A stretch of DNA of 64,000 nucleotides, taken from contig CAZUZV010000004.1 in the NCBI GenBank assembly GCA_964624385.1, positions 12,348-76,347 on the forward strand, read 5' to 3'. The translations under genes and the position numbers were made by a program. Positions within the stretch are counted from its first letter, which is position 1; every line of letters starts with the position of its first letter. This stretch comes from an uncultured Eubacteriales bacterium. GTDB taxonomy: Bacteria > Bacillota > Clostridia > Oscillospirales > Acutalibacteraceae. The notes below the pieces were generated by a model, which had not been told where the DNA came from, did not search any database, and saw only the letters and a list, made by a program, of their open reading frames with translations. Below are positions 7,945-57,775 of this stretch, in pieces.

Positions 7945-10530
7945 ATGAAAAAAGTGGTAGTCGGTATTATTGCCCATGTGGATGCAGGGAAAACAACTCT
8001 TGCAGAAACGCTTCTTTATAAATCGGGCAAAATAAGAAAATTAGGTCGTGTTGATAATGGTGACACGGCTTTGGATACCCATACCCTTGAGCGTGAAAGA
8101 GGTATAACAATATTTGCAGGACAGTCTGTGTTTAATATAGGTGATTTGGAAATAAACCTTCTTGATACACCCGGGCATGTTGATTTTTCTGCAGAAACAG
8201 AAAGAATGCTTAAAATTCTTGATTATGCAATTCTCGTTATAAGCGGAACAGACGGTGTTCAGGCTCATACAAGAACTTTGTGGAAGCTTCTTTGCGCCTA
8301 TAATATTCCCACATTCATTTTTGTTACAAAAATGGATTATGCAAGACTTTCTAAAGAAGAACTTATTGCTGATTTAAGAGGTCTTTGCTCTGATAATTGC
8401 ATAGATTTTTCAGATGAAGTTTCAAATGATTTCTTAGAAAATATTTCAATGTGTGATGAAGACGCCTTGGAAACATATCTGGAAAGCGGAACAATAGAAA
8501 CGGAGAAAATCAAAGAGTTAATAGTTTCCCGAAAATGTACTCCTTGTTATTTTGGTTCAGGGTTAAAAGGCGATGGCGTTGATGAATTTGTCAACGGTCT
8601 GGAAAAGTATATTTCAGTTAAAAAATACCCTGAAGAATTTGGTGCAAAGGTATATAAAATAACTCACGACCCCAAAGGCGAAAGAATAACCCATATAAAA
8701 ATAACAGGTGGTTCTTTAAAGGTTAAAGATACCGTATCAATAGATGAAAAAAACGAAAAGATTAATAATATAAGAGTTTATTCGGGCGAGAAATTTATAA
8801 CTGTAGAAGAAGCAACAAGTGGGGGCATATACGCTCTTACCGGATTGAATTCCGTAAATACAGGTGACGGACTAGGCTTTGAAACATCCTTTGGAAAAGC
8901 TTTTTTAGAGCCTGTTATGAACTATAGAATTGTTCTGCCTAAGGATTGCGACCCTAAAACCTTTTTTTCGAAATTAAAAGAGCTTGAAGCAGAAGACCCA
9001 CAGCTACATATCACTTGGAACACATACTTGCAGGAAATATATGTTTCCCTGATGGGTGATGTTCAAACTGAGATTCTCAAAAGTATTATTTCTACTCGCT
9101 TTAATGTGGATGTAGAGATTGATAGCGGTAAGGTGCTTTATAAGGAAACGATTAATAATAAGGTTGAGGGAGTAGGACACTATGAACCCTTAAGGCATTA
9201 TGCTGAGGTTCATTTGATTTTAGAACCCTTGCCAAGAGGTAGCGGTATTGTTTTCTCTTCAAAATGCAGTGAAGATTCATTAAGCCGGAATTGGCAGAAT
9301 TTAATTATGGCTCATTTATCCGAAAAAGAGCATTTGGGCATACTTACAGGTTCGCCTGTAACTGATGTTAAAATCACTCTTGCTGCCGGTAGAGCACATT
9401 TAAAGCATACTGAGGGAGGAGACTTCAGGCAGTCTACATATAGAGCAGTAAGGCAAGGTCTTATGCAAGCAAAATCCATTCTTTTGGAGCCTTATTATAG
9501 CTTCAGACTTGAAGTTCCCACCGAACAAATCGGAAGGGCAATCAATGATGTAAGAATGAAAAACGGCACAATTGATTCTCCCGAGGATTTAAACGGAATA
9601 AGCATTTTAACGGGTAAAGCACCTGTTACAACATTGAATGGCTATGCTTCTGAGGTGGCTGCTTATACCGGTGGTAAAGGTAGATTGTTTCTTGAAGTAT
9701 GTGGTTATGATGTTTGCCATAATGCAGATGAAATAATTGAAAATTCAAAATATTCTCCCGAAAGTGATTTAGAAAACACTCCCGATTCAGTTTTTTGCGC
9801 TCACGGAGCAGGATTTAATGTTAAATGGGATAAGGTATTTGAATATATGCACATAGATTCTTGCCTTGAACAAGAGAAAACGCCATACGAGGTAAATCTC
9901 AATAAGCGTAATTTTCACATTGACGATAAAGAGCTGGAGGCTATAATGACCCGTGAATTTGGTGAAGACAAGCACCCATTTTACAGATATAGCCATAGTA
10001 AAACTCCTGCTAAACCCATTAATACGGAATATAATACGCAAATCTGTAAGAAGTATGTTATTGTTGACGGCTACAATGTGATTTTTGCTTGGGATGAGCT
10101 TAAAGAAATTGCAAACGATAATCTGGGGGTTGCACGGGATAAGCTTTTAGATGTTCTTTGTAATTATTCCGCTTTTACAAAATGTGAAACAATTGTAGTT
10201 TTTGATGCTTATAAGGTTTCGGGCAATAATGGGCAGAGGTTTAATTACAATAATATTCATGTTGTTTACACAAAAGAGCGTGAATTGGGGGATAATTATA
10301 TCGAAAAGCTTGTTAGCGATATAGGCAAAAATGAAAATGTCAGAGTTGTAACATCGGATAACCTTATTCAGCTTTCTTCTATTCGTTTTGGTGTGTTGCG
10401 CGTTTCCGCGCAGGATTTCAAAAGGGAAGTAGATGCAGTTGAAAAAAATATAGATGATTTGCTTTTCAAAATAAATAAACCCCGACCACAAAAAGTAGGG
10501 GAGTTAGTTGATTGGTTGTTAGAAAATTAA
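7945..10530 (+). CDS. Translational GTPase (TetM/EF-G-like, five-domain) fused to a C-terminal YacP/Rae1-type NYN ribonuclease domain
   Basis: G1 AHVDAGKT, G2 RGITI, G3 DTPGH, G4 TKMD; strong TetM-like similarity through about aa 640. The last ~165 aa carry the YacP/Rae1 motifs VIVDGYN, VVFDAY, GDNYIEKL and VTSDNL. Single uninterrupted ORF. Confidence 0.85.
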   Translation: MKKVVVGIIAHVDAGKTTLAETLLYKSGKIRKLGRVDNGDTALDTHTLERERGITIFAGQSVFNIGDLEINLLDTPGHVDFSAETERMLKILDYAILVISGTDGVQAHTRTLWKLLCAYNIPTFIFVTKMDYARLSKEELIADLRGLCSDNCIDFSDEVSNDFLENISMCDEDALETYLESGTIETEKIKELIVSRKCTPCYFGSGLKGDGVDEFVNGLEKYISVKKYPEEFGAKVYKITHDPKGERITHIKITGGSLKVKDTVSIDEKNEKINNIRVYSGEKFITVEEATSGGIYALTGLNSVNTGDGLGFETSFGKAFLEPVMNYRIVLPKDCDPKTFFSKLKELEAEDPQLHITWNTYLQEIYVSLMGDVQTEILKSIISTRFNVDVEIDSGKVLYKETINNKVEGVGHYEPLRHYAEVHLILEPLPRGSGIVFSSKCSEDSLSRNWQNLIMAHLSEKEHLGILTGSPVTDVKITLAAGRAHLKHTEGGDFRQSTYRAVRQGLMQAKSILLEPYYSFRLEVPTEQIGRAINDVRMKNGTIDSPEDLNGISILTGKAPVTTLNGYASEVAAYTGGKGRLFLEVCGYDVCHNADEIIENSKYSPESDLENTPDSVFCAHGAGFNVKWDKVFEYMHIDSCLEQEKTPYEVNLNKRNFHIDDKELEAIMTREFGEDKHPFYRYSHSKTPAKPINTEYNTQICKKYVIVDGYNVIFAWDELKEIANDNLGVARDKLLDVLCNYSAFTKCETIVVFDAYKVSGNNGQRFNYNNIHVVYTKERELGDNYIEKLVSDIGKNENVRVVTSDNLIQLSSIRFGVLRVSAQDFKREVDAVEKNIDDLLFKINKPRPQKVGELVDWLLEN

Positions 10531-10582: not shown

Positions 10583-12481
10583 TTAAACTCTAACGATTTC
10601 GTTATTTAATTCTTGAAGTCCATTCATAAGAGAGGAAGCAACATTTTTACCGAGAGAAATAAGCTCGTGGTAGTGATTTGCAGGATCGCCCATTGTGAAG
10701 TCGTTATCAGGAACAACATAACCAATAGCATCGTTCATAAGACCGAAGCATTTAACATCGCTACCGAAGATGTTGCAAGCGGGTTGAGCAGAAAATGCAG
10801 TTGCAGTAACAGAATTTGCTGCTAATAATGATGCACCGTTAGGAGCGATAAGATCCTGACAAATTTCACCGGGTAAGAACACTGTCTTGAACTGATTGCC
10901 CATTTCCATATAACCGATTTCTGTAATTGTCGCATAGGAGCCGTCTTCTTTTGCAATAACAACATAGTTAGCAAGATTAAGCTTACCAACAGTTTCAATA
11001 AGTGCGTTGGAAATCGGGATTTCAACCTGCTTGATGAGAAGGTTGAGGAAGGGTTCAACAACCTGTTCTTCGGGGATTACATCATTGCCTTCTTCATCTT
11101 TGTTCCAATTTTCGTACCAGATTGAGTATGCTTCGTTATCGCCGTATTCAGCAATTTCTTCTGCACAGTTGAGCATATCATCAGCTTCAACTTCTTCTTT
11201 TGTGAGAGTGAGTGAGAGAGCCATTCTTGCAAGCTCATATCCATATCTTTGAGATTCCTCAACTCTTTGTTCAGTGGGAACGCCGTCACCGGTAACACTT
11301 CTTGACATATATATACCTGCGATGGCACCCTGGAAGAACATAAAGTTGTAACCTGCATCCTCAAGGAATTTACCACAGTAGAAGAGATAGTCACCACTGA
11401 TTTCACGACCGGAGTTGGAGCTTGTGGGAAGACCTGCAACGTCGGGGTGAGCAGCAATGTTGAGCATCATTGTGGGAGTTTCACCTTCAGCATCAGGAAC
11501 AAAGACAAATCTTGAAATATCTGTCATAGCGATTTCTTTTTCACCGGTATAAACCTTGTTACCATTTGTGTCAATTTCGTAAATCATTTCGCCTGCTGAG
11601 GGGCGGTTTTTGTTATTGAAATAGTCCTGTCCGAGATCTTTTTCTGTATATGTAAGAACACCGGGTTGTAAATCTTCATAAGCATCAACAAGAGCATCAG
11701 CAACTCTTTCTTTAAGGAATGCCATATATGCCGGATTAGTGCCCTGAACAAGCTCTTCATCAGCACCCGTGCCGTTTACAATACCGTTACGAGAAAGCTT
11801 ATAAAGAAGTTTGGTCCAAAGACCTTCTGTGTCGATACAACTATGTGTATGAGTAGAAGAAACGTTGATTGAAACGATATCGTTAGCCTCTGCGAAATCT
11901 GCAAGAAGTGCACGAATATCCTTAATATCAGCGTTTGTAATACCGATACAGTCAATTGTTGCAAATAACACAGTACCTGAATCCGTACCATCGTTTATTG
12001 CAACACAACGAACCTTCATATCATCTTTGCCGATTCCGGGAATTTCAGCGATACCTTCAACAACATTTGAAAAACCGTTTTCAATTGCGATGTAACCACC
12101 GATGTAGTATGTACCATTGCTGTAATCATTAGGAATAAGGCTTTCGTTAGAATAACCGAGATTCCATTGTGCACCGTCTTCAGCCGAAGTGCGGAATTCA
12201 TTTCCTGTGCCTTCGTAGAAGTTTTCTGAGGCTTTAATTTCAGCACTTTCTTGGCTTACAAATCCGGGACCATCGTTAAACAAACCGGAGAAGAGGTTAA
12301 GAATAAAGTTTAAAAGTGTTTCAATAATGTCAGAAAAAATAACACCAATAGGGTCTTCGCTGTCATTGCTTATAATTGGATAAGCACTTGAAGCACTCGC
12401 TGTTGTTGCGCCGAAAGATGCAAAAGCAAGAGTCAACGAAAGAATAACAGCAATGATTTTTGTTAATCTGCTTTTTTTCAT
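10583..12481 (-). CDS. Secreted protein, neutral/alkaline ceramidase-like family (tentative)
   Basis: Start placed at ATG 12481 behind AAAGGAGA, giving signal peptide MKKSRLTKIIAVILSLTLAFASFGATTASA. Motif SSTHTHSCIDTEG resembles the THTHSGP zinc-site motif of neutral ceramidases. The ORF-track start at 12565 is probably too far upstream. Confidence 0.6.
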   Translation of the reverse strand: MKKSRLTKIIAVILSLTLAFASFGATTASASSAYPIISNDSEDPIGVIFSDIIETLLNFILNLFSGLFNDGPGFVSQESAEIKASENFYEGTGNEFRTSAEDGAQWNLGYSNESLIPNDYSNGTYYIGGYIAIENGFSNVVEGIAEIPGIGKDDMKVRCVAINDGTDSGTVLFATIDCIGITNADIKDIRALLADFAEANDIVSINVSSTHTHSCIDTEGLWTKLLYKLSRNGIVNGTGADEELVQGTNPAYMAFLKERVADALVDAYEDLQPGVLTYTEKDLGQDYFNNKNRPSAGEMIYEIDTNGNKVYTGEKEIAMTDISRFVFVPDAEGETPTMMLNIAAHPDVAGLPTSSNSGREISGDYLFYCGKFLEDAGYNFMFFQGAIAGIYMSRSVTGDGVPTEQRVEESQRYGYELARMALSLTLTKEEVEADDMLNCAEEIAEYGDNEAYSIWYENWNKDEEGNDVIPEEQVVEPFLNLLIKQVEIPISNALIETVGKLNLANYVVIAKEDGSYATITEIGYMEMGNQFKTVFLPGEICQDLIAPNGASLLAANSVTATAFSAQPACNIFGSDVKCFGLMNDAIGYVVPDNDFTMGDPANHYHELISLGKNVASSLMNGLQELNNEIVRV

Positions 12482-12659
12482 AATTTGTAATCTCCTTTTA
12501 TATTGCCGGATTTTTGACAATATTATTTGATAATATATTTTACAATACATTTCAAGTTTTTTCAACCATCAATTTTGCTAAATTACGAGGAGTTTATTAA
12601 ATGATTTGCACAAATTTTATTATTTTAAAAATTAAAGTAAAAGATAAGCGGATTTTATA

Positions 12660-12724: not shown

Positions 12725-13948
12725 ATGAAAAACTTAGATATAGCTAACGGCAGACTAAAAAAAGTCGTTGCGTTGCTTCTTGTGACCTGTATGGTTGTAG
12801 GTCTTCTTTCCAGCGCAGCTGTTAAGGTTGTTGCTTCCACCTACTATATGCAGACGAAGCGCAAATTGAAAGTAAATAATCCTATTGTTCAGCAGGCGAT
12901 TGACACAATAGTTGGTGACAATAACATTGCCGGTCCGGAAACTACAGCTCCTACAGTAACAGCACCGGCTACAACAGAAGCCCCCACAACACAGGCTCCA
13001 ACTACAGAAACACCTACAACCGAATCGGATACGTCTGAAGTTGCTTCTGATGAAACAACAACTACAACAACAGCTGTTAGCGGTTCAAGTGGCAGTTCTA
13101 CGGATATTTTAGGCACAATCACAGGCTTACTTGGTGGTTTGGGTAGTGTTGATATCGGTGGTATGCTCGACGGCATCGGTGATATGCTCGGCGGCCTAGG
13201 TGGCGGTTCTTCAGAAGAAACTACAACAACCACGGAATCTACAACCGAATCCAAGGCATCCAAAGCTCAGAAAAAAGAAGTTCTCAGTGAATATAACGCG
13301 GTTGTTAATTATGCAAAGAAGATAGGCAAACCGGCTTTCACAAAAGTAACTTACAGAACTCTTGAAAAAGATGGCGCTGCAAAATTGCTTTTCCGTAATG
13401 TTGAGTCGCAGTACCCCGAATATTTCATTTCCAAAGAAAATGCAGAAGCAGCACCAATTCTTGTTCCCGCAAATACTGAAACATCGGAGCTTTTGATTGA
13501 TAATGAATACTTTGCAGGTATGCTTGCAACAGCAGATGCTTCCGATGCTATTGAATCTGCAACAAGTGTTAAGCTTGAAGACGGTTCACAAAAGATTACA
13601 ATTACACTTCGTGATGAAGTTGATCCCGCTATTACAGTAGCTGATTCAAAAACAGCTGCAAGTTTCACAAGTGCGATGTTCCCTGTTATTGATGCAGAAA
13701 CAGTTAAAGAAAAAGTTGCAAGCACTTTGAAGATTACTAAAATTACCGGCGCAAATGTTACTTATACTGAATGTACTGTTGAACTCATTTTTAATCCTTC
13801 GTTGAATAGAATTATCAGTGTTAAGCAAACAGTTAAACACGTTGATAATGTCGAAGGTTATATTATTGAGGGTATGCTTCCTGTTTCGGGTTCAGCAACG
13901 GTAACAGAAATTTCTGAATACAGAGATTTCGACTACGGTCTTCTTTAA
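12725..13948 (+). CDS. Hypothetical secreted or membrane-anchored protein with Thr/Pro-rich and Gly-rich linkers
   Basis: RBS AGGGGGA and an N-terminal hydrophobic anchor. Linker TTAPTVTAPATTEAPTTQAPTTETPTT, then GGLGSVDIGGMLDGIGDMLGGLGGG, then a ~220-aa globular C-terminus. Confidence 0.7.
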   Translation: MKNLDIANGRLKKVVALLLVTCMVVGLLSSAAVKVVASTYYMQTKRKLKVNNPIVQQAIDTIVGDNNIAGPETTAPTVTAPATTEAPTTQAPTTETPTTESDTSEVASDETTTTTTAVSGSSGSSTDILGTITGLLGGLGSVDIGGMLDGIGDMLGGLGGGSSEETTTTTESTTESKASKAQKKEVLSEYNAVVNYAKKIGKPAFTKVTYRTLEKDGAAKLLFRNVESQYPEYFISKENAEAAPILVPANTETSELLIDNEYFAGMLATADASDAIESATSVKLEDGSQKITITLRDEVDPAITVADSKTAASFTSAMFPVIDAETVKEKVASTLKITKITGANVTYTECTVELIFNPSLNRIISVKQTVKHVDNVEGYIIEGMLPVSGSATVTEISEYRDFDYGLL

Positions 13949-32208: not shown

Positions 32209-32709
32209 ATGAACAAAAAATATGGTTTAATTGCAGGATGTATTATTTTAATTTCTTTGGTTTTTGCTCTTGTTGTTGCAGGTGTTACAAAGCTCAGTGA
32301 TAATACGTCACCCTCGGAAATAGTAAGCGGAGAAGCAACTCTTCAAGCTCAGGAGGGTAACTATTCTGTCAAAATTACAACGGTTTTGGAGGCGGAGCCG
32401 AACACTGACGATGCTGACCCACCCAAAGCAGAAAGAATAGCAATTGTAGTTTATGAATACACAAATGCCGATATTACCCACGGTCTTGCAATTGGAAACA
32501 CCCATTTCAAAGCTTATGATGCCAACGGTAAAGAGCTCCTGCAGTACCCGCAAAAAGACCTTTTTGTACCAAGCGAGGTAGAGGAGTCGGGAACGTTTAC
32601 CGCAAGTGTCGCTTTTGCCCTTAATAACGATAAAAATTATCTGAAAATCGAGTATTATAACGATGTTTCAGCAAAAACCCCCGATGCAGTATTTGAGCAA
32701 GAGTGGTAA
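32209..32709 (+). CDS. Hypothetical membrane-anchored small protein
   Basis: RBS AAGAGG, one N-terminal TM helix, beta-rich ectodomain. Confidence 0.6.
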   Translation: MNKKYGLIAGCIILISLVFALVVAGVTKLSDNTSPSEIVSGEATLQAQEGNYSVKITTVLEAEPNTDDADPPKAERIAIVVYEYTNADITHGLAIGNTHFKAYDANGKELLQYPQKDLFVPSEVEESGTFTASVAFALNNDKNYLKIEYYNDVSAKTPDAVFEQEW

Positions 32710-32920: not shown

Positions 32921-34000
32921 TTATTCTATATTCCCGATAAACGCCGTGTCTGTGGGGTATTTCCCTCGGTGGTTTCTGTATTTTGCGGCACCGGATTCGA
33001 ATATAATATATTGTCCTTTCTCGCCTTGAACGATGCCTTCTGCCATTGGGGGAGCGGTTATGGTTTCTTTTAATAAATCGCTACTGCAGGCGAGAAGACT
33101 TATTTCCGTGTCGTCAACGGTATAAATACCGATTCTTTCCGATAAGAGAACATCGTCATAAACATAGATTATTGAGTTGTTCTTCCTTCCGTAGCTAGTG
33201 GAGAAAATGAGCTTACCGCTGTTTGTGAACGCCATACCCTGAACCTGTTCGGGAATTGCCAGGAAATAGTCGGGAATATAACCGTTGTTTTCGGAATTCA
33301 GCTTCTTAACATCGGGTAAACCGTCTTTTAATATATAACCCTCGCAATAGGCGTAGAAAGTTTCGCCACTTGCAAGTGTCGTTATTTTTCGGGTATTTTC
33401 TCTTGCAGAGTCGCTGCTTTCTATAAAGTCGCCCGTCCAGAGAATACCTTCGTTATAGCAAGCAAAAGAGCCGTAAGTGTTCAGCTTAAAATTGCTTTCA
33501 AATTTTAACATTTCCCCGTTTTTTAATTCTTTTAGTTTGTTAACCTCGAATATATAACAGGTGTTATCGCTTGTAATGTATACGTAATCTTCTGAAGAAG
33601 TAAGACCGCCTGCATGACCGTAATAGGCATTACCGTCAACGCTTTCTAAAGGAAATGCTTTAGTGAATTTTTTTGTTTGAGCGTCAATAAGCATTATCAT
33701 TGAGGGGTACGCACCATCCTCGTAATAACCGCTTACGGCATATAAATTCAACTTTCCGATATAGCAAATACCTTGGGGAATTATACCCTCAAAAAGTCCC
33801 GGTATTGTAAAATCTGGAGAGAACTCCTTGAAAAAGCTTTTATAATCCTCAACCTCTTCAATTTCGGATTCGGTAACAACGGATGTTTGGGTTATTATAT
33901 CTGTAATATCTTTTGTTTTCAAAACCTTCCAATCACCGCAAGAGCTAAAAAGAACAACAGACATTATCAGAGCCGTAATTCCAATAATTTTTCTTTTCAT
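32921..34000 (-). CDS. Hypothetical lipoprotein
   Basis: Start set at ATG 34000, giving MKRKIIGITALIMSVVLFSSCGD with a lipobox LFSSC. About 340 aa of beta-rich mature protein. The ORF track extends to 34045. Confidence 0.65.
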   Translation of the reverse strand: MKRKIIGITALIMSVVLFSSCGDWKVLKTKDITDIITQTSVVTESEIEEVEDYKSFFKEFSPDFTIPGLFEGIIPQGICYIGKLNLYAVSGYYEDGAYPSMIMLIDAQTKKFTKAFPLESVDGNAYYGHAGGLTSSEDYVYITSDNTCYIFEVNKLKELKNGEMLKFESNFKLNTYGSFACYNEGILWTGDFIESSDSARENTRKITTLASGETFYAYCEGYILKDGLPDVKKLNSENNGYIPDYFLAIPEQVQGMAFTNSGKLIFSTSYGRKNNSIIYVYDDVLLSERIGIYTVDDTEISLLACSSDLLKETITAPPMAEGIVQGEKGQYIIFESGAAKYRNHRGKYPTDTAFIGNIE

Positions 34001-34100
34001 AAAAATCACCGCACAAAGTATAACACAATTGTGCATAAATGGCAAATTATATTGAAAAAGTCATATTTTTACAAATTTGACGGAATTTCACTTTTTACTC

Positions 34101-34129: not shown

Positions 34130-34191
34130 TCACTGGATTTGATAACATAGGGCTGAAAATCAACCCTAAATGTGTGATGGAGGTCATTGAA

Positions 34192-35160
34192 GTGAAAACA
34201 ATCGGTGTACTTACAAGCGGCGGTGACGCACCAGGAATGAACGCTGCAATTCGTGCAGTTGTGAGAACGGCTTGCGAAAGCGGTATCAAGGTTATGGGTA
34301 TCCGCCGAGGTTATAAAGGGCTTATTGAGGGCGATATGTATGAAATGAATCTTCGTTCCGTTTCCGATATTATTCATCGTGGCGGCACAATGCTTTATTC
34401 CGCTCGTTGCCCCGAATTTGCAGAGCCTGAGGTTCAGGATAAGGCAGTTGAGGTTTGTCATGAGTTCGGTCTTGAGGGGATTGTTGCAATAGGCGGTGAC
34501 GGTACTTTCAGAGGTGCCCGTGCCCTTACTCTTAAAGGTATTCCCTGTATCGGTATCCCCGGCACAATTGACAATGATATTGCATCCTGCGATTATACAA
34601 TCGGTTACGATACTGCTCTTAATACAGTTATGGCAATGGTTGACCGCATCCGTGATACCACAGAATCACATGACAGATGCTCTGTTGTTGAGGTTATGGG
34701 TAGAAATGCCGGTTATCTTGCTCTTAATGCAGGTCTTGCAATCGGTGCAACTTGTATCCTTATTCCCGAGGTTGATTATGATATTGATTCATACATCATC
34801 GAAAGAATGAAACGTACTCAGAAGACAGGCAAAGAACATTTTGTTATTGTTGTTGCGGAAGGTGTTAAGGGCATTGACGCTAACTCTCTTGCAAAATATA
34901 TTGAGCAGAAGACAGGTGTTGAAAGCCGTGCAACAATTCTTGGCCACGTTCAGCGCGGTGGTTCTCCCTCAGTTCGTGACAGAGTTCTTGCTTCTCAGAT
35001 GGGTAACTATGCTGTTCAGCTTCTTAAAAACGATATAGGTAACAGAGTTGTTGCTTCCTGCAAAGATAAAATTGTTGACTATGATATTATTGAGGCTCTC
35101 AATATGAAGAAAACAATTGATCTCGATCTTTACAGAATAGCAAACGAAATTTCTATATAA
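34192..35160 (+). CDS. pfkA: ATP-dependent 6-phosphofructokinase
   Basis: IGVLTSGGDAPGMNAAIR, IGGDGT, PGTIDND and GHVQRGG motifs. GTG 34192 sits 8 nt behind GGAGG; the ORF-track ATG is at 34174. Confidence 0.95.
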   Translation: MKTIGVLTSGGDAPGMNAAIRAVVRTACESGIKVMGIRRGYKGLIEGDMYEMNLRSVSDIIHRGGTMLYSARCPEFAEPEVQDKAVEVCHEFGLEGIVAIGGDGTFRGARALTLKGIPCIGIPGTIDNDIASCDYTIGYDTALNTVMAMVDRIRDTTESHDRCSVVEVMGRNAGYLALNAGLAIGATCILIPEVDYDIDSYIIERMKRTQKTGKEHFVIVVAEGVKGIDANSLAKYIEQKTGVESRATILGHVQRGGSPSVRDRVLASQMGNYAVQLLKNDIGNRVVASCKDKIVDYDIIEALNMKKTIDLDLYRIANEISI

Positions 35161-39611: not shown

Positions 39612-40451
39612 GTGAAACAGAGAGTAATAACCGGTGTGTTGTCCGGTATAATATTTATAGGCGCGCTTTTACTGATGAATACAGTCGTATTCCCTGTATT
39701 TGTTGCTTTGCTCAGCGGTATGGCAGTTTATGAAATTGAAAAAGCAGTTGGACTGAAAAATAAAATGATAATGGCTATAAGCCTTGTGCTTTCGGTTGCA
39801 ATTCCCTTTATAGTTCATTTCGATTTGAAAATGCCGATTGCCGCTTTTGGCGGAGTATACGTTGTTCTTGTGTTCATTTTTATGTTACTGAAATTTGAGA
39901 CCACTAAATTTGAACAAGCGGTTACTGCCATTTTCTCTTCTGTTTGTGTTCCGTATTCGTTTTCGCTTATGATTGTTTTCCGCGATATTCATAAGCATTT
40001 TGAGGGTTACACAAAGGTTGACGGAGTTTATCTTCTTCTTTTCGCTTTTTTTGCAAGCTGGATGACGGATATTTTCGCATATTTTGTAGGAAGTAAGCTC
40101 GGTAAACATAAGCTTTGCCCCAAAATCAGTCCCAAAAAGTCTGTTGAGGGTGCAATTGGCGGTGTTGCAGGTGCAGTTATTCTCAATGTGCTTCTTCTCT
40201 TTGTATTTAAGAAGTTCTTCTTTGAAGGGGAATCAATTCTTTCCTACATAACTGTTGCAATATTGAGCGTTGTTCTCTCTGTTGTAAGTATGTTCGGCGA
40301 CCTTGCCGCTTCCACAATCAAACGAAACTTCGGAATTAAGGATTTCGGTAAGCTTCTTCCCGGTCATGGTGGTATTATGGACCGTTTCGACAGTGCATTA
40401 TTCGTAATGCCCGTTCTTTATTCCGCAATTTATTTTATTAATGCATTTTGA
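39612..40451 (+). CDS. cdsA: Phosphatidate cytidylyltransferase
   Basis: C-terminal signature STIKRNFGIKDFGKLLPGHGGIMDRFDS. GTG start behind AGGAG. Confidence 0.9.
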   Translation: MKQRVITGVLSGIIFIGALLLMNTVVFPVFVALLSGMAVYEIEKAVGLKNKMIMAISLVLSVAIPFIVHFDLKMPIAAFGGVYVVLVFIFMLLKFETTKFEQAVTAIFSSVCVPYSFSLMIVFRDIHKHFEGYTKVDGVYLLLFAFFASWMTDIFAYFVGSKLGKHKLCPKISPKKSVEGAIGGVAGAVILNVLLLFVFKKFFFEGESILSYITVAILSVVLSVVSMFGDLAASTIKRNFGIKDFGKLLPGHGGIMDRFDSALFVMPVLYSAIYFINAF

Positions 40452-40457
40452 TTTATT

Positions 40458-41606
40458 ATGAAAACTATTAATTTATTAGGTTCAACAGGTTCAATAGGTG
40501 TTCAGACATTAGACGTAGCAAGGGCCCACGGTTATAAAATCGAGGCTCTTGCCGCATTTTCTGACGTTAAAGGTATTGAAGCGCAGATTCGCGAATTCAA
40601 GCCCAAATACGCAGCTCTTGTTGATGAGAGTGCTGCTAAGGATTTAAAAGACAGAGTCAGAGATTTGGATGTTACCGTTTTAAGCGGTATGGAAGGTGTT
40701 TGCTACTGTGGTGCAGAGGCGAATGGGGAAATTACCCTTAACTCCGTAGTGGGTATGGCAGGGCTAAAACCCACTCTTGATGCAGTTAATTCAGGTAAAA
40801 CAATAGCCCTTGCAAATAAGGAAACCCTTGTTGCAGGTGGTCATCTTGTAACAGAAGCGGCAAAGAAGAATAATGTTTCTATTTTGCCCGTTGATAGTGA
40901 GCACTCAGCAATTTTCCAATGTCTTTTAGGTGCACCGTCCAATAAAGCGCTCAAAAGAATTATACTTACTGCTTCAGGCGGTCCTTTCTTTGGTAAAACT
41001 AAAGAGGAACTGCAGAATGTTACTTTGGCAGACGCTCTCAAGCACCCGAGCTGGAGTATGGGACAAAAAATAACAATAGACAGCGCTACAATGTTCAATA
41101 AGGGGCTTGAGCTTATTGAAGCAGTATGGCTCTTCGATGTAAGTCCTGATATGATTGACATTGTTGTTCACAGAGAAAGCATTGTTCATTCTCTTATTGA
41201 ATACGATGATAATTCAGTTATCGCTCAGTTAGGTCATCCTGATATGAGATTGCCCATTCAGTTTGCAATAACTTATCCCGAGCGTTATGAGTCGCCCGAA
41301 AAGCAGCTTGATTTATGGGAAGTGGGAAAGCTCACTTTCTATAAACCCGATTACGAAAACTTCCCTTGTATGAATATTTGCCGTGACGCTATAACAAAAG
41401 GTGGTTTGTATCCTGCCGCAGTGAATTGCGCAAACGAAGAGGCAAATTTGCTTTTCAGACAGGGTAAAATATCATTTAATGCCATTCCTGAGCTTATTTC
41501 TCTTGCATCGGAGCATACTCTCAAAAAGCAGGATTTCACTTTGCAGGATGTTTTCGATACGGATAATTTAATGAGAGAAAAAGTCAGAGAATTAGCAAAA
41601 GCATAA
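40458..41606 (+). CDS. dxr: 1-deoxy-D-xylulose-5-phosphate reductoisomerase
   Basis: LGSTGSIG NADPH site, LANKE, DSEHSAIFQC, HPSWSMG motifs. Confidence 0.95.
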   Translation: MKTINLLGSTGSIGVQTLDVARAHGYKIEALAAFSDVKGIEAQIREFKPKYAALVDESAAKDLKDRVRDLDVTVLSGMEGVCYCGAEANGEITLNSVVGMAGLKPTLDAVNSGKTIALANKETLVAGGHLVTEAAKKNNVSILPVDSEHSAIFQCLLGAPSNKALKRIILTASGGPFFGKTKEELQNVTLADALKHPSWSMGQKITIDSATMFNKGLELIEAVWLFDVSPDMIDIVVHRESIVHSLIEYDDNSVIAQLGHPDMRLPIQFAITYPERYESPEKQLDLWEVGKLTFYKPDYENFPCMNICRDAITKGGLYPAAVNCANEEANLLFRQGKISFNAIPELISLASEHTLKKQDFTLQDVFDTDNLMREKVRELAKA

Positions 41607-41633
41607 TTTTTATTTTTTAAATAAAGCAAAGAG

Positions 41634-42713
41634 GTGTTAACCATAGAAAACTTTGATATCGGCGCACTCTGGAGCAGTGTATGGCCCTTTTTACTTGCAA
41701 TATTTCTTTTCGGTGTAATTATTGCCATTCACGAATTCGGTCATTTTTCGTTTGCGAAGCTTTTTGATGTTCAGATTAATGAGTTCTCCCTTGGAATGGG
41801 ACCGAAGCTTCTTAAAAAGAAGAAGGGCGAAACAACTTATGCCTTGCGTCTTTTTCCCATTGGTGGCTTTGTAAGTATGGAAGGCGAAGATGAAGATAGT
41901 GATAATCCAAGGGCATTCAATAATAAACCTGCGTGGCAGAGATTTATAATCGTTGCCGCAGGCGCAATACTCAACCTTGTTTTAGGTGTGGTTGTTGTTG
42001 GGATTTGTCTTTCCTGTGGTGACCTTGTGGGCACTCGTCAGATTCATAGCTTTATGGAGGAGTCCGTAAGTGATAAAAGCGGTCTTCAGGCAGGGGACGA
42101 GATTATAAAAATTAATAACACCCACGTATATTCCTCTCAGGGTGTTGCCTTTAATATGGTTCGCGATACTGACAACAAGCTTGATATTACCGTTATTCGT
42201 GATGGTGAAAAGCTTCTCATTGAGGGCGTTGAGTTCAAGCAATTTGAGTTTGAAGGCAGAAAATATATTCAGCAGGATTTCTATATTGTAGGCGAAGAGC
42301 CCACAGTTCTGAATGTTTTGAAAAATGCTGTTCTCGATTCCGCTTCCATTGTGCAGATGGTTCGTTTGAGTCTTGTTGATATGGTAACGGGAAAATACGG
42401 TATGAAGGATGTTTCGGGTCCTATCGGTACAATTTCTGCAATTGCTGAATCCACTGCTGAACCCGAAGAATTCAGTGATAAAATTCTTACAGCGCTCAAT
42501 TTCCTTTCTATGATAACAATCAATGTTGGTGTGTTTAATCTTCTTCCTTTACCTGCTCTTGACGGTGGCAGACTATTCTTTATTTTAATTGAAATGATAA
42601 GAAGAAAACCCATACCTGCAAAAAAAGAAGGCATTGTTCATACTGTGGGACTTGTGCTTTTGCTTATATTAATGGCAATTATTTCAGTTAATGATGTTAT
42701 AAAACAATTTTAG
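41634..42713 (+). CDS. rseP: RIP (site-2) zinc metalloprotease RseP/RasP
   Basis: HEFGH zinc motif in TM1, PDZ segment (GLQAGDEIIKIN), NLLPLPALDGG motif. GTG is the only in-frame start and its RBS is poor. Confidence 0.85.
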   Translation: MLTIENFDIGALWSSVWPFLLAIFLFGVIIAIHEFGHFSFAKLFDVQINEFSLGMGPKLLKKKKGETTYALRLFPIGGFVSMEGEDEDSDNPRAFNNKPAWQRFIIVAAGAILNLVLGVVVVGICLSCGDLVGTRQIHSFMEESVSDKSGLQAGDEIIKINNTHVYSSQGVAFNMVRDTDNKLDITVIRDGEKLLIEGVEFKQFEFEGRKYIQQDFYIVGEEPTVLNVLKNAVLDSASIVQMVRLSLVDMVTGKYGMKDVSGPIGTISAIAESTAEPEEFSDKILTALNFLSMITINVGVFNLLPLPALDGGRLFFILIEMIRRKPIPAKKEGIVHTVGLVLLLILMAIISVNDVIKQF

Positions 42714-42717
42714 TGAG

Positions 42718-43776
42718 TTGAATTTTATGATTAGACGAGTTTCAAGACAAGTTAAGGTTGGTAATGTTAAGATTGGTGGAGATGCACCAATTGCAGTTCA
42801 GTCAATGCTTAATGCCCTTGCAAGTGATTTCGAGGGCAATTTAAAGCAGCTTAAAGCACTTGAAGAAGCAGGATGCGAAATTGTTCGTATGGCAGTGCCC
42901 GATATGGAAGCTGTTAAAGTTCTTGGTAAGCTTAAAGAGCACAGTAATATTCCTCTTGTTGCTGATATCCATTTTGATTATAAGCTTGCTCTTGAAAGTC
43001 TTAATGCAGGAGTGGATAAAATCCGTATTAATCCGGGTAATATTGGCTCTGCGGATAAGGTTTTTGCAGTTGCCGATGCTTGTCAGCTTAAAAATGTACC
43101 TATCAGAATCGGTGTTAACTCAGGCTCGGTTGAAAAGGATTTATTGGAAAAATTCGGCGGTGCAACTCCTGAAGCAATGGTTGAAAGTGCATTCCGCCAT
43201 GTTAAGCTTTTAGAGGATTGCGATTTCTATAACACAGTTATTTCAATTAAATCCTCCGATGTTGGTAATATGGTTGAAGCGTATTCTCTCGTTGCCGATA
43301 GATGCGATTATCCATTGCATTTAGGTGTCACAGAGGCAGGAACAGAGCGCAGTTCACTTATTAAATCTTCTATCGGTATCGGTTCACTCCTTCTTAAAGG
43401 TATCGGTGACACCGTCAGAGTTTCCATTACTGATGACCCTGTTAAAGAAATATATGCCGCAAAGGATATCCTTAAAGCAGTTAATGTAAGAGTTGAAACA
43501 CCTCAGATAGTTTCCTGTCCTACTTGCGGACGAACAAAAATTGACCTTGTTTCCCTTGCAAATCAAGTGGAAAATGCGGTCAGAGATATTAAAAAGCCTA
43601 TTAAAATTGCCGTTATGGGTTGCGTAGTTAACGGACCCGGTGAGGCTAAAGAAGCCGATATCGGCATTGCAGGAGGGGACGGATGCGCCGTTCTCTTCAA
43701 AAAAGGCGAAATTCTTAGAAAGGTTTCAGAAGAAAATGTCCTCAAGGAGCTTTTTGAGGAAATTGATAAAATATGA
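42718..43776 (+). CDS. ispG: 4-hydroxy-3-methylbut-2-enyl diphosphate synthase (flavodoxin)
   Basis: GGDAPIAVQSM, RINPGNIG, Fe-S Cys SCPTCGRT and GCVVNGPGE. The start may be ATG 42727. Confidence 0.9.
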   Translation: MNFMIRRVSRQVKVGNVKIGGDAPIAVQSMLNALASDFEGNLKQLKALEEAGCEIVRMAVPDMEAVKVLGKLKEHSNIPLVADIHFDYKLALESLNAGVDKIRINPGNIGSADKVFAVADACQLKNVPIRIGVNSGSVEKDLLEKFGGATPEAMVESAFRHVKLLEDCDFYNTVISIKSSDVGNMVEAYSLVADRCDYPLHLGVTEAGTERSSLIKSSIGIGSLLLKGIGDTVRVSITDDPVKEIYAAKDILKAVNVRVETPQIVSCPTCGRTKIDLVSLANQVENAVRDIKKPIKIAVMGCVVNGPGEAKEADIGIAGGDGCAVLFKKGEILRKVSEENVLKELFEEIDKI

Positions 43777-46700
43777 TGTATAATTTTTTGGATATTTTCG
43801 GTGAATATATTGCGACGCAGAAATATCGCGATATGCTGAAAAGCACAACCTTCACCGATTTAGAGATAAATAAGGATTTAATGACAATGAAAGCGCTTCT
43901 CCATGTTGATGCTTTCGCTAATATAATGTGCCTGAAGGCAGTTGCAAACGAAATCAAAACGGCACTTCGTTTTAAATCCGTTGAATTTGAATATATTTTA
44001 CCTCCCGAAGCGTTGACGGAAACTTGTTTTCCCATGCTTTTAAAGGTAGTTAAAGTAAATGTTCCTCAGACAAATGGCTTTCTTGACAGTATAGAAACAA
44101 GCTTCGGTGACGGTGTTTTTACTGTTAATTTCTTAAAAAGCGGTAGAGATATTTGTGTCAATGCAGGAGCGGATAAATTTTTAGAGGATTACATAAAAAC
44201 TCATTTTAATCGTTCAATAACTGTTGAATTTATTGGAAAAGATTCAAATGAAGAAGAGTTTTTGAGAAAACAACAGGAGATAGACTCATCTAATAAAACT
44301 CTTCGTCCTACTGCTCAATATGAAAATTTTCCCGATGTTCCTCTGGATTTCAATACTGTTAAGTCAATAATAGGTAACTTTAAATATCAAAAACCAAAAG
44401 CGATGGAAGATGTTACCTATGAGGATGGTCAGGTTTTCGTATGGGGCGATGTTTTCAAATATGAAAAGCGCGAAACCAAGGACGGAAAGCGTTATATAAT
44501 TGAGTTTAATATAACTGATAATACAGGTTCCTTCGGTTGTAAATTTTTTGATACTAAAGAGCAGCTCGAATACCTTGATTCTCAGTTGAAGGAGGGCGTA
44601 ACAGTTCTTGTTCGCGGTGTTCTGGGCTATGATGACTATAAAAAGGATTTTATTATTCGTCCAAGCTGTGTAGCAACAATTCAGAAGCTCGATTTTGTTG
44701 ATGAAGCAGAGGAAAAGCGCGTTGAACTTCATCTTCATACAAATATGTCCGCAATGGATGCTATGAGCAGCGCAAAATCCATTGTTAAACGTGCTATGAA
44801 ATGGGGTCACAAGGCAATTGCCATTACTGACCACGGCTGTGTTCAGGCTTTCCCGGAGGCTTGTAATACCGCAAGAGGCAGTGATTTTAAAATCATTTAC
44901 GGTTGCGAATGCTACCTTGTAAATGATTATAATGAGGACGGCTCTAAGAAAACTCTTGAAGAGATAAAAGCGGACAGATATTACCATTGTATTCTTCTTG
45001 TTAAGAATAAGGTGGGGCTTAAAAATCTTTATAAGCTTGTTTCCGCTTCGAATATTGAGTATTTCCATAAAAAACCAAGAATGCCTAAAAGCCTTATTGA
45101 AGAAAGACGTGAAGGTCTTATTATTGGTAGCGCTTGTGAGGCAGGTGAGCTTTACCGTGCAATTTTAGCAGGGGAAAGTCACGAAAAGCTTCTTGAAATT
45201 GCATCATTCTACGACTATCTTGAAATTCAGCCTACGGGTAACAATGAATTTATGATTTCTAAAAATGATGTTGGTTACGATAAAATCAATTCATACGCCG
45301 ATATCGAAAATATTAATAAAATGATAATCAGTTTGGGCGACGAGTTAGGTAAAAAGACTGTTGCCACAGGTGACGTGCATTTCCTTGACAAGAATGACGC
45401 TAAATACAGAGCAATTCTTCAGGCAGGACAAGGTTTCTCCGATGCAGATAATCAAGCTCCCTTGTATTTAAAAACAACAACTGAAATGCTTGCGGATTTT
45501 TCCTATTTAGGTGAGGAAACCGCAAAAGAGGTTGTTGTTACAAACACAAATTATATTGCAGATATGATTGAGCCGGGCATTTTACCCATTCCTGACGGTA
45601 CATTTAACCCGATTATTCCCGGTGCTGAAGAGGATTTGACGAAGCATTGCTGGGACAGAGCTAAGGAATGGTATGGTGACCCTGTTCCGAAAGTGGTTGC
45701 TGACCGACTTGAAAAGGAGCTTAAATCCATTATTGAAAACGGCTTCGCAGGACTTTATATGATTGCACGTCTTCTTGTTAAGCACTCGGAAGAATGTGGC
45801 TATTATGTAGGTTCCCGAGGCTCAGTTGGTTCTTCCTTTGTTGCTATTATGGCGGGTATTTCCGAGGTTAACCCGTTACAGCCTCACTACCGTTGTACTA
45901 ATTGTAAATATTCCGAGTTTTTCTTGCATAATGAAGTGGGTTCAGGTTTTGACCTTCCCCCGAAGAACTGCCCCGAATGCGGTACACCCTTGTTCCGTGA
46001 CGGTCACGAAATTCCTTTTGAAACCTTCCTTGGCTTCTTCGGTGATAAATCTCCCGATATTGACCTTAACTTTGCAGGTGAATATCAGAGCCAATCCCAC
46101 AGATATACAGAAGAGCTTTTCGGTAAAGCTTATGTTTTCAAAGCAGGTACAATTTCAGGTGTTGCAGAAAAAACCGCTTTTGGCTTTGTTAAAAAATATG
46201 TTGAAGAACGAGGACTTAATATCACAAAAGCGGAAATTGACCGACTTACCTTGGGGTGCACAGGTGTTAAGAGAACAACCGGTCAGCACCCGGGCGGTAT
46301 GGTTGTTGTTCCGAACACCTATGAGGTTGAGGACTTTACACCCGTTCAAAGACCTGCTGATGACGCAACAAAAGATATTATCACAACTCACTTTGACTTT
46401 AACTCAATGCACGATACATTGTTAAAGCTTGACGAGCTGGGTCATGATGTTCCCACTATTTATAAGCATTTAACCGATTTAACGGGCATTGACGTTCTTG
46501 ATATTGATATCAGTGACAGAAAGCTTTACGAATTATGCACTTCACCCGAACCTCTCGGTATTACTGCTGAGGAATTGGGTTGGCCCACGGGTACGCTTTC
46601 CATTCCCGAAATGGGAACGGATTTCACTAAAGGAATGCTTCTTGAAGCGAGACCACAGACCTTTGCCGACCTTATTCAGATTGCAGGTCTTTCCCACGGT

Positions 46701-47489
46701 ACTGCCGTGTGGCTTGGCAATGCGCAGGATTTAATCAGGGACGGTATATGTACCATTTCCGAGGTTATCGGTACTCGTGACAGTATTATGGTTTATCTTC
46801 TTCATAAAGGTCTTGAACCTAAACAGGCTTTTGATATTATGGAAGATGTCCGTAAGAAGAATAAACAGCTCAAGCCCGAGCAGGAAGCACTTATGAGAGA
46901 ACACGATGTTCCCGAATGGTACATTGACTCTTGTAAAAAGATTCAGTATATGTTCCCGAAAGCTCACGCAGCGGCTTATATTATTGCATCTCTTCGTCTT
47001 GCATGGTTCAAGGTTTATAAGCCTCTTGAATATTACTGCGCTTATCTTACTGTTCGTGGCGGTGACGTTGACGCTGAATCTATGTCAAAGGGTAAAGAAG
47101 CTGTTAAAACTCTTCTTCAGATGATTAGAAATAAGGGTAAAGAGGCTTCCAATGCGGAAAAGGATAAAGAAACAATTATGATGATTGTTTACGAAGCTAT
47201 GGTTCGCGGAATTGAGTTTTTACCCATTGATATTTATAAATCAACCGCCCATTCCTATGAGCCCGAGGACGGCAAAATAAGAATGCCTTTCTCTGCTCTT
47301 GCAGGTGTTGGTGATGCGGCGGCGGAGCAGTTAGCAAAAGCAAGGGACGACGGCGGTCCCGCGTTCTCTTCAATTGAAGATTTTGAAGTTCGTTCAGGTG
47401 CGGGTAAATCAACTGTTGCCCTTCTTAAAGCCTGCGGTGCTTTTGGCGATTTGCCCGATAGCGACCAGATATCATTATTTGAGTTTTAA
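43773..47489 (+). CDS. polC: PolC-type DNA polymerase III alpha subunit lacking the inserted 3-prime-5-prime exonuclease domain
   Basis: PolC order: N-domain, OB fold, PHP (ELHLHTNMS, ITDHG), Zn module CTNCKYSEF..CPECG, GVKRTTGQHPGG, FPKAHAAAY. Canonical rseP-ispG-polC locus. 1238 aa. Only ~25 residues lie where the ~190-aa DEDDh domain normally sits. Confidence 0.85.
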   Translation: MMYNFLDIFGEYIATQKYRDMLKSTTFTDLEINKDLMTMKALLHVDAFANIMCLKAVANEIKTALRFKSVEFEYILPPEALTETCFPMLLKVVKVNVPQTNGFLDSIETSFGDGVFTVNFLKSGRDICVNAGADKFLEDYIKTHFNRSITVEFIGKDSNEEEFLRKQQEIDSSNKTLRPTAQYENFPDVPLDFNTVKSIIGNFKYQKPKAMEDVTYEDGQVFVWGDVFKYEKRETKDGKRYIIEFNITDNTGSFGCKFFDTKEQLEYLDSQLKEGVTVLVRGVLGYDDYKKDFIIRPSCVATIQKLDFVDEAEEKRVELHLHTNMSAMDAMSSAKSIVKRAMKWGHKAIAITDHGCVQAFPEACNTARGSDFKIIYGCECYLVNDYNEDGSKKTLEEIKADRYYHCILLVKNKVGLKNLYKLVSASNIEYFHKKPRMPKSLIEERREGLIIGSACEAGELYRAILAGESHEKLLEIASFYDYLEIQPTGNNEFMISKNDVGYDKINSYADIENINKMIISLGDELGKKTVATGDVHFLDKNDAKYRAILQAGQGFSDADNQAPLYLKTTTEMLADFSYLGEETAKEVVVTNTNYIADMIEPGILPIPDGTFNPIIPGAEEDLTKHCWDRAKEWYGDPVPKVVADRLEKELKSIIENGFAGLYMIARLLVKHSEECGYYVGSRGSVGSSFVAIMAGISEVNPLQPHYRCTNCKYSEFFLHNEVGSGFDLPPKNCPECGTPLFRDGHEIPFETFLGFFGDKSPDIDLNFAGEYQSQSHRYTEELFGKAYVFKAGTISGVAEKTAFGFVKKYVEERGLNITKAEIDRLTLGCTGVKRTTGQHPGGMVVVPNTYEVEDFTPVQRPADDATKDIITTHFDFNSMHDTLLKLDELGHDVPTIYKHLTDLTGIDVLDIDISDRKLYELCTSPEPLGITAEELGWPTGTLSIPEMGTDFTKGMLLEARPQTFADLIQIAGLSHGTAVWLGNAQDLIRDGICTISEVIGTRDSIMVYLLHKGLEPKQAFDIMEDVRKKNKQLKPEQEALMREHDVPEWYIDSCKKIQYMFPKAHAAAYIIASLRLAWFKVYKPLEYYCAYLTVRGGDVDAESMSKGKEAVKTLLQMIRNKGKEASNAEKDKETIMMIVYEAMVRGIEFLPIDIYKSTAHSYEPEDGKIRMPFSALAGVGDAAAEQLAKARDDGGPAFSSIEDFEVRSGAGKSTVALLKACGAFGDLPDSDQISLFEF

Positions 47490-56193: not shown

Positions 56194-56982
56194 ATGAAGG
56201 AAAAGAAAGGATTTATTGTCTATTTTGATTGGGCGGAAACATTAAAAAGATTTTCAAAAGAACAGGCAGGGGAAATATTTTTTGCTATGTTCGACTTTGG
56301 TGAAACCGGCGAAGTTCCTGAGTTTGAGGATTTTGCTGTTGAAACTGCCTTTTCATTTATTAAGAGAACTTTAGAAAGAGATATGGAGGCTTATGAGAAA
56401 AAGTGCATTGCACGTTCTGAAAACGGAAAAAAGGGCGGAAGACCAAAAAAAGAGGAGAGTGATAAAAAGCTGAATAAAGCTAATGAAAGCAAAGAAAAGC
56501 TAAATAAAGCTAAAAAAGCAGAAACAGAGAAAGAAACAGAGAAAGAAACAGAAAAAGAAACAGAAACAGAAACAGAAACAGAAACAGAAACAGAAACAGA
56601 AACATATAATTTATTATCAATATCTTCATCACCTGCGGTGACGGAGGGGAAGCCTTTGAATGTTTATTCAGATGATTTTTTAAAATTCTGGAGCGAATAC
56701 CCGAGGAAAGTTGGAAAAGGTGCGGCATATAAAATATTCAATAAGCTTAAATTAACCAAAAAAGAAAAAGACGATATTATGTCGGCTCTCATTTGGCAGA
56801 AAAAAAGTGAGCAGTGGTTGAGAGACAACGGACAATATATTCCTCATCCTGCAACTTATCTTGTCCAGAAAAGGTGGGAGGATGAACCGTCGGAAAAATT
56901 CGGCGGTGATATAACCGACCCAAGCAGATATGTTGATGATGAAGAAGATAATTTTGATTTCAGGAGTGTTTATGGAGAATAA
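56194..56982 (+). CDS. Phage/plasmid-type replication organizer-like protein with an internal (ET)n repeat
   Basis: N-terminus FIVYFDWAETL..NGKKGGRPKK and C-terminus FLKFWSEYPRKVGKGAAYKIF..YIPHPATYLVQKRWEDE are patterns I associate with phage replisome-organizer/DnaD-like proteins. Family names are recalled, not searched. Confidence 0.6.
   Translation: MKEKKGFIVYFDWAETLKRFSKEQAGEIFFAMFDFGETGEVPEFEDFAVETAFSFIKRTLERDMEAYEKKCIARSENGKKGGRPKKEESDKKLNKANESKEKLNKAKKAETEKETEKETEKETETETETETETETETYNLLSISSSPAVTEGKPLNVYSDDFLKFWSEYPRKVGKGAAYKIFNKLKLTKKEKDDIMSALIWQKKSEQWLRDNGQYIPHPATYLVQKRWEDEPSEKFGGDITDPSRYVDDEEDNFDFRSVYGE
56521..56604 (+). repeat. In-frame hexanucleotide microsatellite: (GAAACA/GAGAAA)x6 followed by perfect (GAAACA)x8
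   Basis: Counted directly. The perfect run is 56557-56604 and encodes ETEKETEKETEK plus (ET)8. Confidence 0.95.
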
Positions 56983-57775
56983 AAATATTTGTAGAATTTG
57001 TGGTAAGGAAAAAAGCAGTAGGGTAATACCTTACATAAATAAAATTATTTATATTGATTGTGAATGTGAAAAGGAATTGCTTTTAAAAATTGAGGAAGAA
57101 AAAAGGGAGAAAGCAATCAAAAGTTATATTGATATGAGAACAAAATCAAGTCACATTTTAAGAAAAGAAGAAAAAGCAGATATTTCAACCTTGATAATTG
57201 ATGATAACAACCGCAGAGCCGTTGACGCCGCCAAATACATTATTGAGCTTTTGTTAAAAGAAGATTCATCAAAAACCAAGAACGGCTTGATTTTGTCAGG
57301 TAACAGAGGCAGCGGGAAAACCTTTATTGCCGCTTCGATTATTAATGAATATAATAAAAAGCAAGCTTTTAATGAGGGCGTAATAAAAGAAATTATTAAA
57401 TCACATGAAAATGGTTTTCTTAATGATCTTGGTGTGAAAATTAATTCGAATTGCAAATACATTAAAGAAAAAGATGTTATTTTGCTTTATGAAAAATATA
57501 ATTACAGGGATAATACTTCACCAATTGATGAGTTTAAAAAAGCAAAGCTTTTGGTTATTGATGATTTAGGCACTACTTATGGTGACAGTAAAAAGATTAT
57601 GTCAATTTTATTTGATTTATTTGATTACCGATACAGTCAAGAGCTTTCCACAATTATAACAACTAACCTTACAAAAGAGGATTTAATGGATTATTTAGGA
57701 GAAAGAACATTTGACAGATTACGGTGCGCTTGTCATTTTGTAAGCTTGGCATCATTTGAAAGCAGGAGGAGTTAA
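56972..57775 (+). CDS. DnaC/DnaI/IstB-like AAA+ helicase-loader protein
   Basis: N-terminal Cys cluster CRICGKE..CEC, Walker A GNRGSGKT, Walker B LLVIDDLG, sensor ITTN. ATG 56972 follows AGGAG and overlaps the upstream stop codon. Confidence 0.75.
   Translation: MENKNICRICGKEKSSRVIPYINKIIYIDCECEKELLLKIEEEKREKAIKSYIDMRTKSSHILRKEEKADISTLIIDDNNRRAVDAAKYIIELLLKEDSSKTKNGLILSGNRGSGKTFIAASIINEYNKKQAFNEGVIKEIIKSHENGFLNDLGVKINSNCKYIKEKDVILLYEKYNYRDNTSPIDEFKKAKLLVIDDLGTTYGDSKKIMSILFDLFDYRYSQELSTIITTNLTKEDLMDYLGERTFDRLRCACHFVSLASFESRRS

Follow-up and report, generated by a model that had tools for sequence, protein, structure and literature searches.

Which site proofreads the DNA made by a PolC replicase that does not carry the usual exonuclease? 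The question is raised by a gene in a 64-kb stretch of contig CAZUZV010000004.1 (hereafter the window, meaning the whole stretch analysed), whose source has the NCBI lineage Bacillota; Clostridia. That PolC has an integral exonuclease is textbook knowledge, and the enzyme is the target of a new antibiotic class. The open reading frame (ORF) at 43773..47489 (+) encodes 1238 residues plus a stop, as an earlier note made from the DNA letters had read it, and PolC equivalog models identify the product as a PolC-type DNA polymerase III alpha subunit that is exo-less, that is, without the exonuclease insert. It is virtually certain that the protein is a PolC-type polymerase of a natural exo-less architecture, in which an N-terminal domain (NTD; putative here) is followed by an OB fold, a PHP domain, the Pol3 core and a tandem helix-hairpin-helix (HhH), written NTD-OB-PHP-Pol3-(HhH)2. 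Judged from its sequence, the gene is a genuine functional replicative PolC, and its host is an uncultured Acutalibacteraceae bacterium from a herbivore gut.

The 1238-residue protein scored 1432.1 bits against the PolC equivalog model NF001688 (cut-off 873) and 1302.4 bits against TIGR01405 (cut-off 1043.45); DnaE models gave at most 250 bits, well under their own cut-offs. Pfam matches covered the OB, PHP, DNA_pol3_alpha, finger and HHH_6 domains. The PolC-specific layout claimed in the earlier note was thus recovered, with the OB fold ahead of PHP, the CxxC..CxxC module and the polymerase aspartates all found and the equivalog cut-offs passed.

To locate the missing domain, the protein was aligned with the full-length PolC chain 9qpc_A. 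The alignment fell into two blocks, query residues 210-385 matching chain residues 255-431 and query residues 398-1237 matching chain residues 634-1472, and left the exonuclease of 9qpc_A (chain 432-633, about 200 residues) unmatched. The clean gap at the PHP insertion point that the earlier note had anticipated is therefore present. By contrast with this two-block pattern, the engineered exo-deleted Geobacillus kaustophilus PolC (3f2b) aligned in a single unbroken stretch over query residues 209-1237. At the canonical insertion point of the roughly 200-residue DnaQ-like exonuclease, the two-block alignment places a linker, VNDYNEDGSKKTLEEIKADR, comprising residues 383-402 (44919..44978, +). 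The flanking PHP ligands E379 and H405 are separated by 25 residues, in agreement with the spacing of about 25 previously read between the PHP motifs. An AlphaFold2 model of residues 200-1238 (mean predicted local distance difference test score, pLDDT, 77.8) shows the linker as a strand, a short helix and a second strand with pLDDT of 90-92. The best PDB matches of the model were the exo-deleted G. kaustophilus PolC structures 3f2c and 3f2b, with template modelling (TM) scores of 0.71-0.74 over about 1037 columns.

Searches for a cryptic exonuclease were likewise negative. RNase_T (PF00929) found no Pfam match in the 1238-residue protein even at E <= 0.1, and a regular-expression scan of the protein returned none of the ExoI, ExoII and ExoIII motifs. 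A hidden Markov model (HMM) built from 95 PolC exonuclease inserts gave -0.1 bits on the protein; the same HMM gives 50-225 bits for most insert-bearing PolCs. The absence of DEDDh motifs asserted in the earlier note is borne out by all three approaches, and a diverged DEDDh domain inside the ORF is excluded by the HMM score and the lack of motifs. Because this hallmark is missing, the protein is filed under the exo-less subgroup and not under the typical PolC architecture. Elsewhere in the window, no PolC-type exonuclease was detected among 378 ORFs, the best match to the HMM having E = 0.73.

We then considered the PHP metal site. The N-terminal half of the domain, residues 316-382 (44718..44918, +), contributes the ligands H320, H322, D329, H354 and E379, and is covered by the Pfam PHP match at residues 318-486 (E 2.4e-34). 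The C-terminal half, residues 403-600 (44979..45572, +), was delimited by motif reading and alignments and contributes H405, C455, D534 and H536. Together the site spells HHDHEHCDH, with nine of nine metal ligands present, and these match H14, H16, D23 and the following positions of Mycobacterium tuberculosis DnaE1 one for one in the alignment. The ligands read earlier as HLH, DH, E and GDVH are accordingly intact. In the AlphaFold2 model the PHP domain has pLDDT of 85-96. The same nine-letter signature serves as the criterion for an 'active' PHP domain in a 2026 survey that charted where in the bacteria 'active' PHP and DnaQ proofreaders occur (PMC12926913), from the group that earlier reported that PolC retains nine of nine PHP positions and discussed PHP-dependent proofreading (PMC3919608).

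The short form could in principle have arisen during assembly or gene calling. An identical 1238-residue protein is recorded on six metagenome contigs; four of these were read, each from a different sequencing run. No stop codon or frame change interrupts the coding sequence at the junction. With each species represented by a single genome, a scan yielded 80 related loci of 47-95% identity, each encoding about 1235-1287 residues. Nearly all lie in metagenome-assembled genomes (MAGs) that bear the titles Acutalibacteraceae, Oscillospiraceae or Clostridia and were recovered from the guts of ruminants and other herbivores. The spacing between E379 and H405 was 22-25 residues in 79/79 relatives covering the linker. 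The same protein on separate contigs and from different runs, the open frame and the matching junction in 79 other genomes rule out an assembly or gene-calling artefact, to which we assign a negligible probability.

The survey of relatives proposed in the earlier note thus revealed the same exo-less form in 80 species-level genomes, mostly Acutalibacteraceae, with no departure from this layout anywhere in the lineage. Wherever a contig covers these positions (78-79 relatives), none of the nine PHP ligands and none of the polymerase aspartates varies, and the same holds in alignment A1. Pairwise ratios of nonsynonymous to synonymous substitution rates (dN/dS), calculated between the query and six relatives, came to about 0.04 over the gene as a whole. 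Constraint was weakest in the N-terminal region (0.05-0.08), with 0.03-0.06 in PHP and about 0.02 in the polymerase core; these values are approximate because dS is near saturation. The polymerase site, zinc module, clamp tail and PHP ligands are therefore intact and under strong purifying selection. A pseudogene was also considered and is ruled out by the dN/dS of about 0.04, the 80 relatives of equal architecture and the invariant ligands. Separately, two of the related loci, L016 and L076 (JAZQMA010000039.1 and JAZQMA010000051.1), are polC pieces on different contigs of one MAG bin that match the query at 92% and 95% identity; mixed strains within the bin are a likelier cause than a real duplication. 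Only three metagenome runs contained 5-6% of the sampled words from the gene, too little for co-abundance arguments.

Whether such a natural form had been catalogued was left open in the earlier note, and the answer is clearly yes. Timinskas et al. (NAR 2014, PMC3919608) found that 6% of PolCs lack the exonuclease insert and 86% have the typical insert architecture. In their set the exo-less PolCs occur exclusively in Clostridia and Negativicutes, except for one extra copy in Thermotogae, and these two classes pair PolC with DnaE1 (PMC3919608). Their Table S2 lists 12 genomes of the PolC plus DnaE1 type (PC+E1) whose sole PolC has the layout NTD-OB-PHP-Pol3-HhH (PMC3919608). Exo-less PolC has therefore been known since 2013-14, and the present gene is a further, documented example that does not represent a novel enzyme type.

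To place this example among other PolCs, query residues 200-1238 were searched against 1.84 billion cluster representatives. Matches of about 1220-1290 residues aligning in a single stretch were exo-less, and matches of about 1400-1500 residues aligning in two stretches were insert-bearing. Across 135 full-length PolC representatives that were aligned, the insert measured 11-61 residues in 31 and at least 140 residues, mostly about 200, in 104. A FastTree phylogeny of these 135, computed with the insert columns removed, has the exo-less state scattered over the tree; Fitch parsimony, which places the insert at the root, counts 16 changes, and about seven exo-less/insert-bearing pairings have local support of at least 0.97. 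The clade containing the present gene (support 0.99) is sister to P0122, an insert-bearing PolC of 1469 residues (support 0.969). The phylogeny indicates that the insert has been lost many times independently. As further observations on the representatives retrieved, six of them (P0148, P0140, P0211, P0158, P0192 and P0163) have 140-290 residues at the exonuclease position that score at most 10 bits against the exonuclease HMM, and these look like eroded or replaced exonuclease domains; P0170, which carries the insert, has a degraded PHP site and is the sister of P0210, a representative described below.

A broader reading of the recurrent losses, and of the perfect HHDHEHCDH site in 30 of the 31 exo-less representatives, is that clostridial PolC may be able to do without the DnaQ-like insert, an add-on discarded again and again, and that PHP may be the primary and ancestral proofreader. 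We advance this tentatively, at slightly less than even confidence. If it were true, the Acutalibacteraceae clade would amount to a large natural knock-out series that could settle which PolC domain proofreads.

In this PolC a 25-residue strand-helix-strand connector between E379 and H405 stands in the place of the DnaQ-like exonuclease. In analogy to DnaE1, we propose a mechanism in which 3'-5' proofreading of the DNA made by PolC would be carried out by the trinuclear metal site of PHP, as in Thermus and Mycobacterium DnaE1. Proofreading by PHP is established for those two enzymes, reportedly through work by Stano in 2006 and Rock in 2015. The partner polymerase would probably be a DnaE1 with its own PHP site, as in all catalogued genomes with exo-less PolC; the presence of DnaE1 in this lineage is assumed by analogy with them. 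That the PHP site is the PolC proofreader here we suggest with somewhat better than even confidence, and the explanation as a whole, a functional exo-less PolC with predicted PHP proofreading and a DnaE1 partner, we regard as fairly probable.

Several points weigh against this explanation. The literature search found no paper biochemically characterising an exo-less PolC. The presence of a perfect PHP motif in 30/31 exo-less and 69/104 insert-bearing representatives (Fisher p = 4e-4, kinship ignored) speaks for the PHP reading, but clostridial PolCs that retain the exonuclease commonly have an intact PHP too, so the association between PHP and exonuclease loss is partly phylogenetic and is no proof that PHP took over. 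P0210 has no insert (its linker is 11 residues) and a degraded PHP site, HRSLENSDQ for HHDHEHCDH, although its PHP region aligns with that of the present protein at 40% identity (E 2e-64); as it is without both, 'PHP must compensate' is no absolute rule. The window also does not share the order murB-rapZ-whiA-dnaE1-pfkA, which occurs in two other Oscillospirales loci from other samples (L085 and L086). Ahead of its pfkA (34174-35160, +) come addB, addA and two ORFs without an assignment, and not dnaE1; the two explanations are a break in synteny at this place and a dnaE1 at some other site. An ORF family scan found no dnaE within the 64 kb. A search with the first 400 residues of Ethanoligenens harbinense DnaE1 (Timinskas Table S1), X-padded to full length, retrieved 120 Oscillospirales DnaE1s, none of which could be assigned to the genome at hand or to any of its 80 relatives among the MAGs.

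The earlier note had offered a choice between a DnaQ-like protein acting in trans and the PHP domain itself, which is reasonable but omits DnaE1 as a main, self-proofreading replicase, a role treated in the Discussion of PMC3919608. In that alternative, a DnaE1 with intact PHP would be the main replicase and the exo-less PolC would have a narrower role in which intrinsic proofreading is less needed. The idea was raised by Timinskas et al., whose exo-less PolCs are all in clostridial genomes with PolC and DnaE1 (PMC3919608), and a domain not needed in such a background could well be lost repeatedly, as the insert has been. It sits less well with the very strong purifying selection on this PolC (dN/dS about 0.02 in the polymerase core) and with the retention of the clamp motif and the canonical locus; moreover, the complete lack of variation among the PHP ligands speaks for continued selection of a nuclease function on PolC itself. 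We consider a main DnaE1 of this kind rather unlikely, though with an appreciable chance.

A separate DEDDh exonuclease of the DnaQ type could instead dock on PolC or on the clamp, as epsilon does on Escherichia coli DnaE1. Stand-alone DnaQ homologues are common enough to make this plausible, averaging more than three per proteome (PMC12926913). The window, however, holds no ORF for a PolC-type exonuclease, partial inspection of the 3-kb polC flanks in the 80 relatives showed the same slot genes and no partner gene, and the strictly conserved PHP site is a candidate proofreader already in cis; proofreading in trans is thus unlikely. It is very improbable that the gene is an extra paralogue beside a full-length, exo-bearing PolC elsewhere in the genome. 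One additional exo-less copy is on record, in Thermotogae (PMC3919608), but the present gene occupies the canonical cdsA-dxr-rseP-ispG-polC slot, the exo-less form is the sole PolC in 12/12 PC+E1 genomes of Timinskas Table S2 (PMC3919608), and the same form is found at the same locus in 80/80 related species. PHP proofreading by a functional exo-less PolC with a DnaE1 partner remains our preferred explanation.

The remaining parts of the protein were placed as follows. The N-terminal region, residues 1-200 (43773..44372, +), has no Pfam match and is conserved among relatives (consensus of 32); N-terminal domains of PolC are poorly conserved in general (Timinskas et al. 2014, PMC3919608). The OB fold lies N-terminal to PHP, the PolC-specific position, at residues ~209-305 (44397..44687, +), as placed by the alignment with the OB fold of 3f2b from residue 209. 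The Pfam family tRNA_anti-codon matched OB residues 237-289 at 24.3 bits, slightly below its gathering score of 27, and the region is modelled as a five-strand beta-barrel with pLDDT of 87-93. The Pol III alpha core of palm, thumb and fingers comprises residues 621-1140 (45633..47192, +; PF07733, E 3.9e-53; PF17657, E 3.2e-21), with the catalytic D762, D764 and D887 present and invariant in relatives. Within it, the CxxC...CxxC zinc module of C708, C711, C733 and C736 (45894..45980, +) was read from sequence, and its cysteines are 4/4 invariant in alignment A1, where they correspond to C509, C512, C534 and C537 of the 1039-residue query. The tandem helix-hairpin-helix spans residues 1146-1227 (47208..47453, +; PF14579 HHH_6, E 1.5e-12). 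It is followed by a sliding-clamp-binding motif, QISLF, at residues 1232-1236 (47466..47480, +), also read from sequence, in which Q, S, L and F show little or no variation among relatives. The clamp motifs of PolC listed in Timinskas Table S1 stand at the very end of the chain, that of E. harbinense being QMTFF at 1453-1457 (PMC3919608).

Upstream, the canonical polC slot of cdsA, dxr, rseP and ispG occupies 39612..43776 (+), as assigned from Pfam families of the genes called on the identical contigs. The full order 5' of polC is pyrH, frr, uppS, cdsA (CTP_transf_1), dxr, rseP (Peptidase_M50) and ispG (GcpE), and the families of these neighbours agree with the locus named in the earlier note. 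Large ORFs elsewhere in the window encode AddB, AddA, ClpC, an EF-G-NYN fusion, Dxs, RecN and PEPCK, the remainder being housekeeping genes. The fusion is unusual: 861 residues (7945-10530, +) join an EF-G/Tet(M)-like GTPase (GTP_EFTU, EF-G II-IV, EFG_C) to a C-terminal YacP-like NYN nuclease. Four ORFs of 660, 407, 166 and 374 residues, at 10583-12565 (-), 12725-13948 (+), 32209-32709 (+) and 32921-34045 (-), have no Pfam match at E <= 1e-5, and the last of them starts with a lipoprotein-like signal sequence. Just 3' of a GH3 operon, a DUF6291 gene followed by an IstB/IS21-like ATPase gene (56194-57775, +) forms a mobile-element-like pair.

The protein can be compared with four sets of known polymerases. 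The PHP-proofreading DnaE1 enzymes of M. tuberculosis and Thermus (7pu7, 5lew, 2hpi) share its nine-residue PHP metal site and probably its mode of proofreading, but they belong to another group of C-family polymerases, have the OB fold at the C-terminal side and are only about 20% identical to it. Canonical PolC, as in Bacillus subtilis, Staphylococcus aureus and 9qpc, has the same equivalog models, domain order, zinc module, aspartates and genomic slot, and is about 50% identical outside the insert; it differs in possessing the DEDDh exonuclease of about 200 residues (9qpc_A 432-633) that is missing here. The engineered G. kaustophilus PolC (3F2B/3F2C) resembles the present protein in its single-stretch alignment and is the best structural match, and that construct demonstrates closure of the PHP barrel in the absence of the insert. 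In that case the exonuclease and the N-terminal region were deleted for crystallography, whereas here the absence of the exonuclease is natural and the whole N-terminal region is kept. Closest of all are the natural exo-less PolCs (PMC3919608), which have the same NTD-OB-PHP-Pol3-(HhH)2 layout, clostridial hosts, nine PHP positions and C-terminal clamp motif; the present one differs in coming from an uncultured herbivore-gut Acutalibacteraceae member outside the 2013 genome set. To that catalogue it adds a well-documented example that is conserved across a whole lineage, together with evidence that the insert was lost repeatedly. Lineages such as this one, in which the DnaQ-like insert is naturally absent, are the cleanest material in which to ask whether the DnaQ-like or the PHP site of PolC proofreads in bacteria with both PolC and DnaE1.

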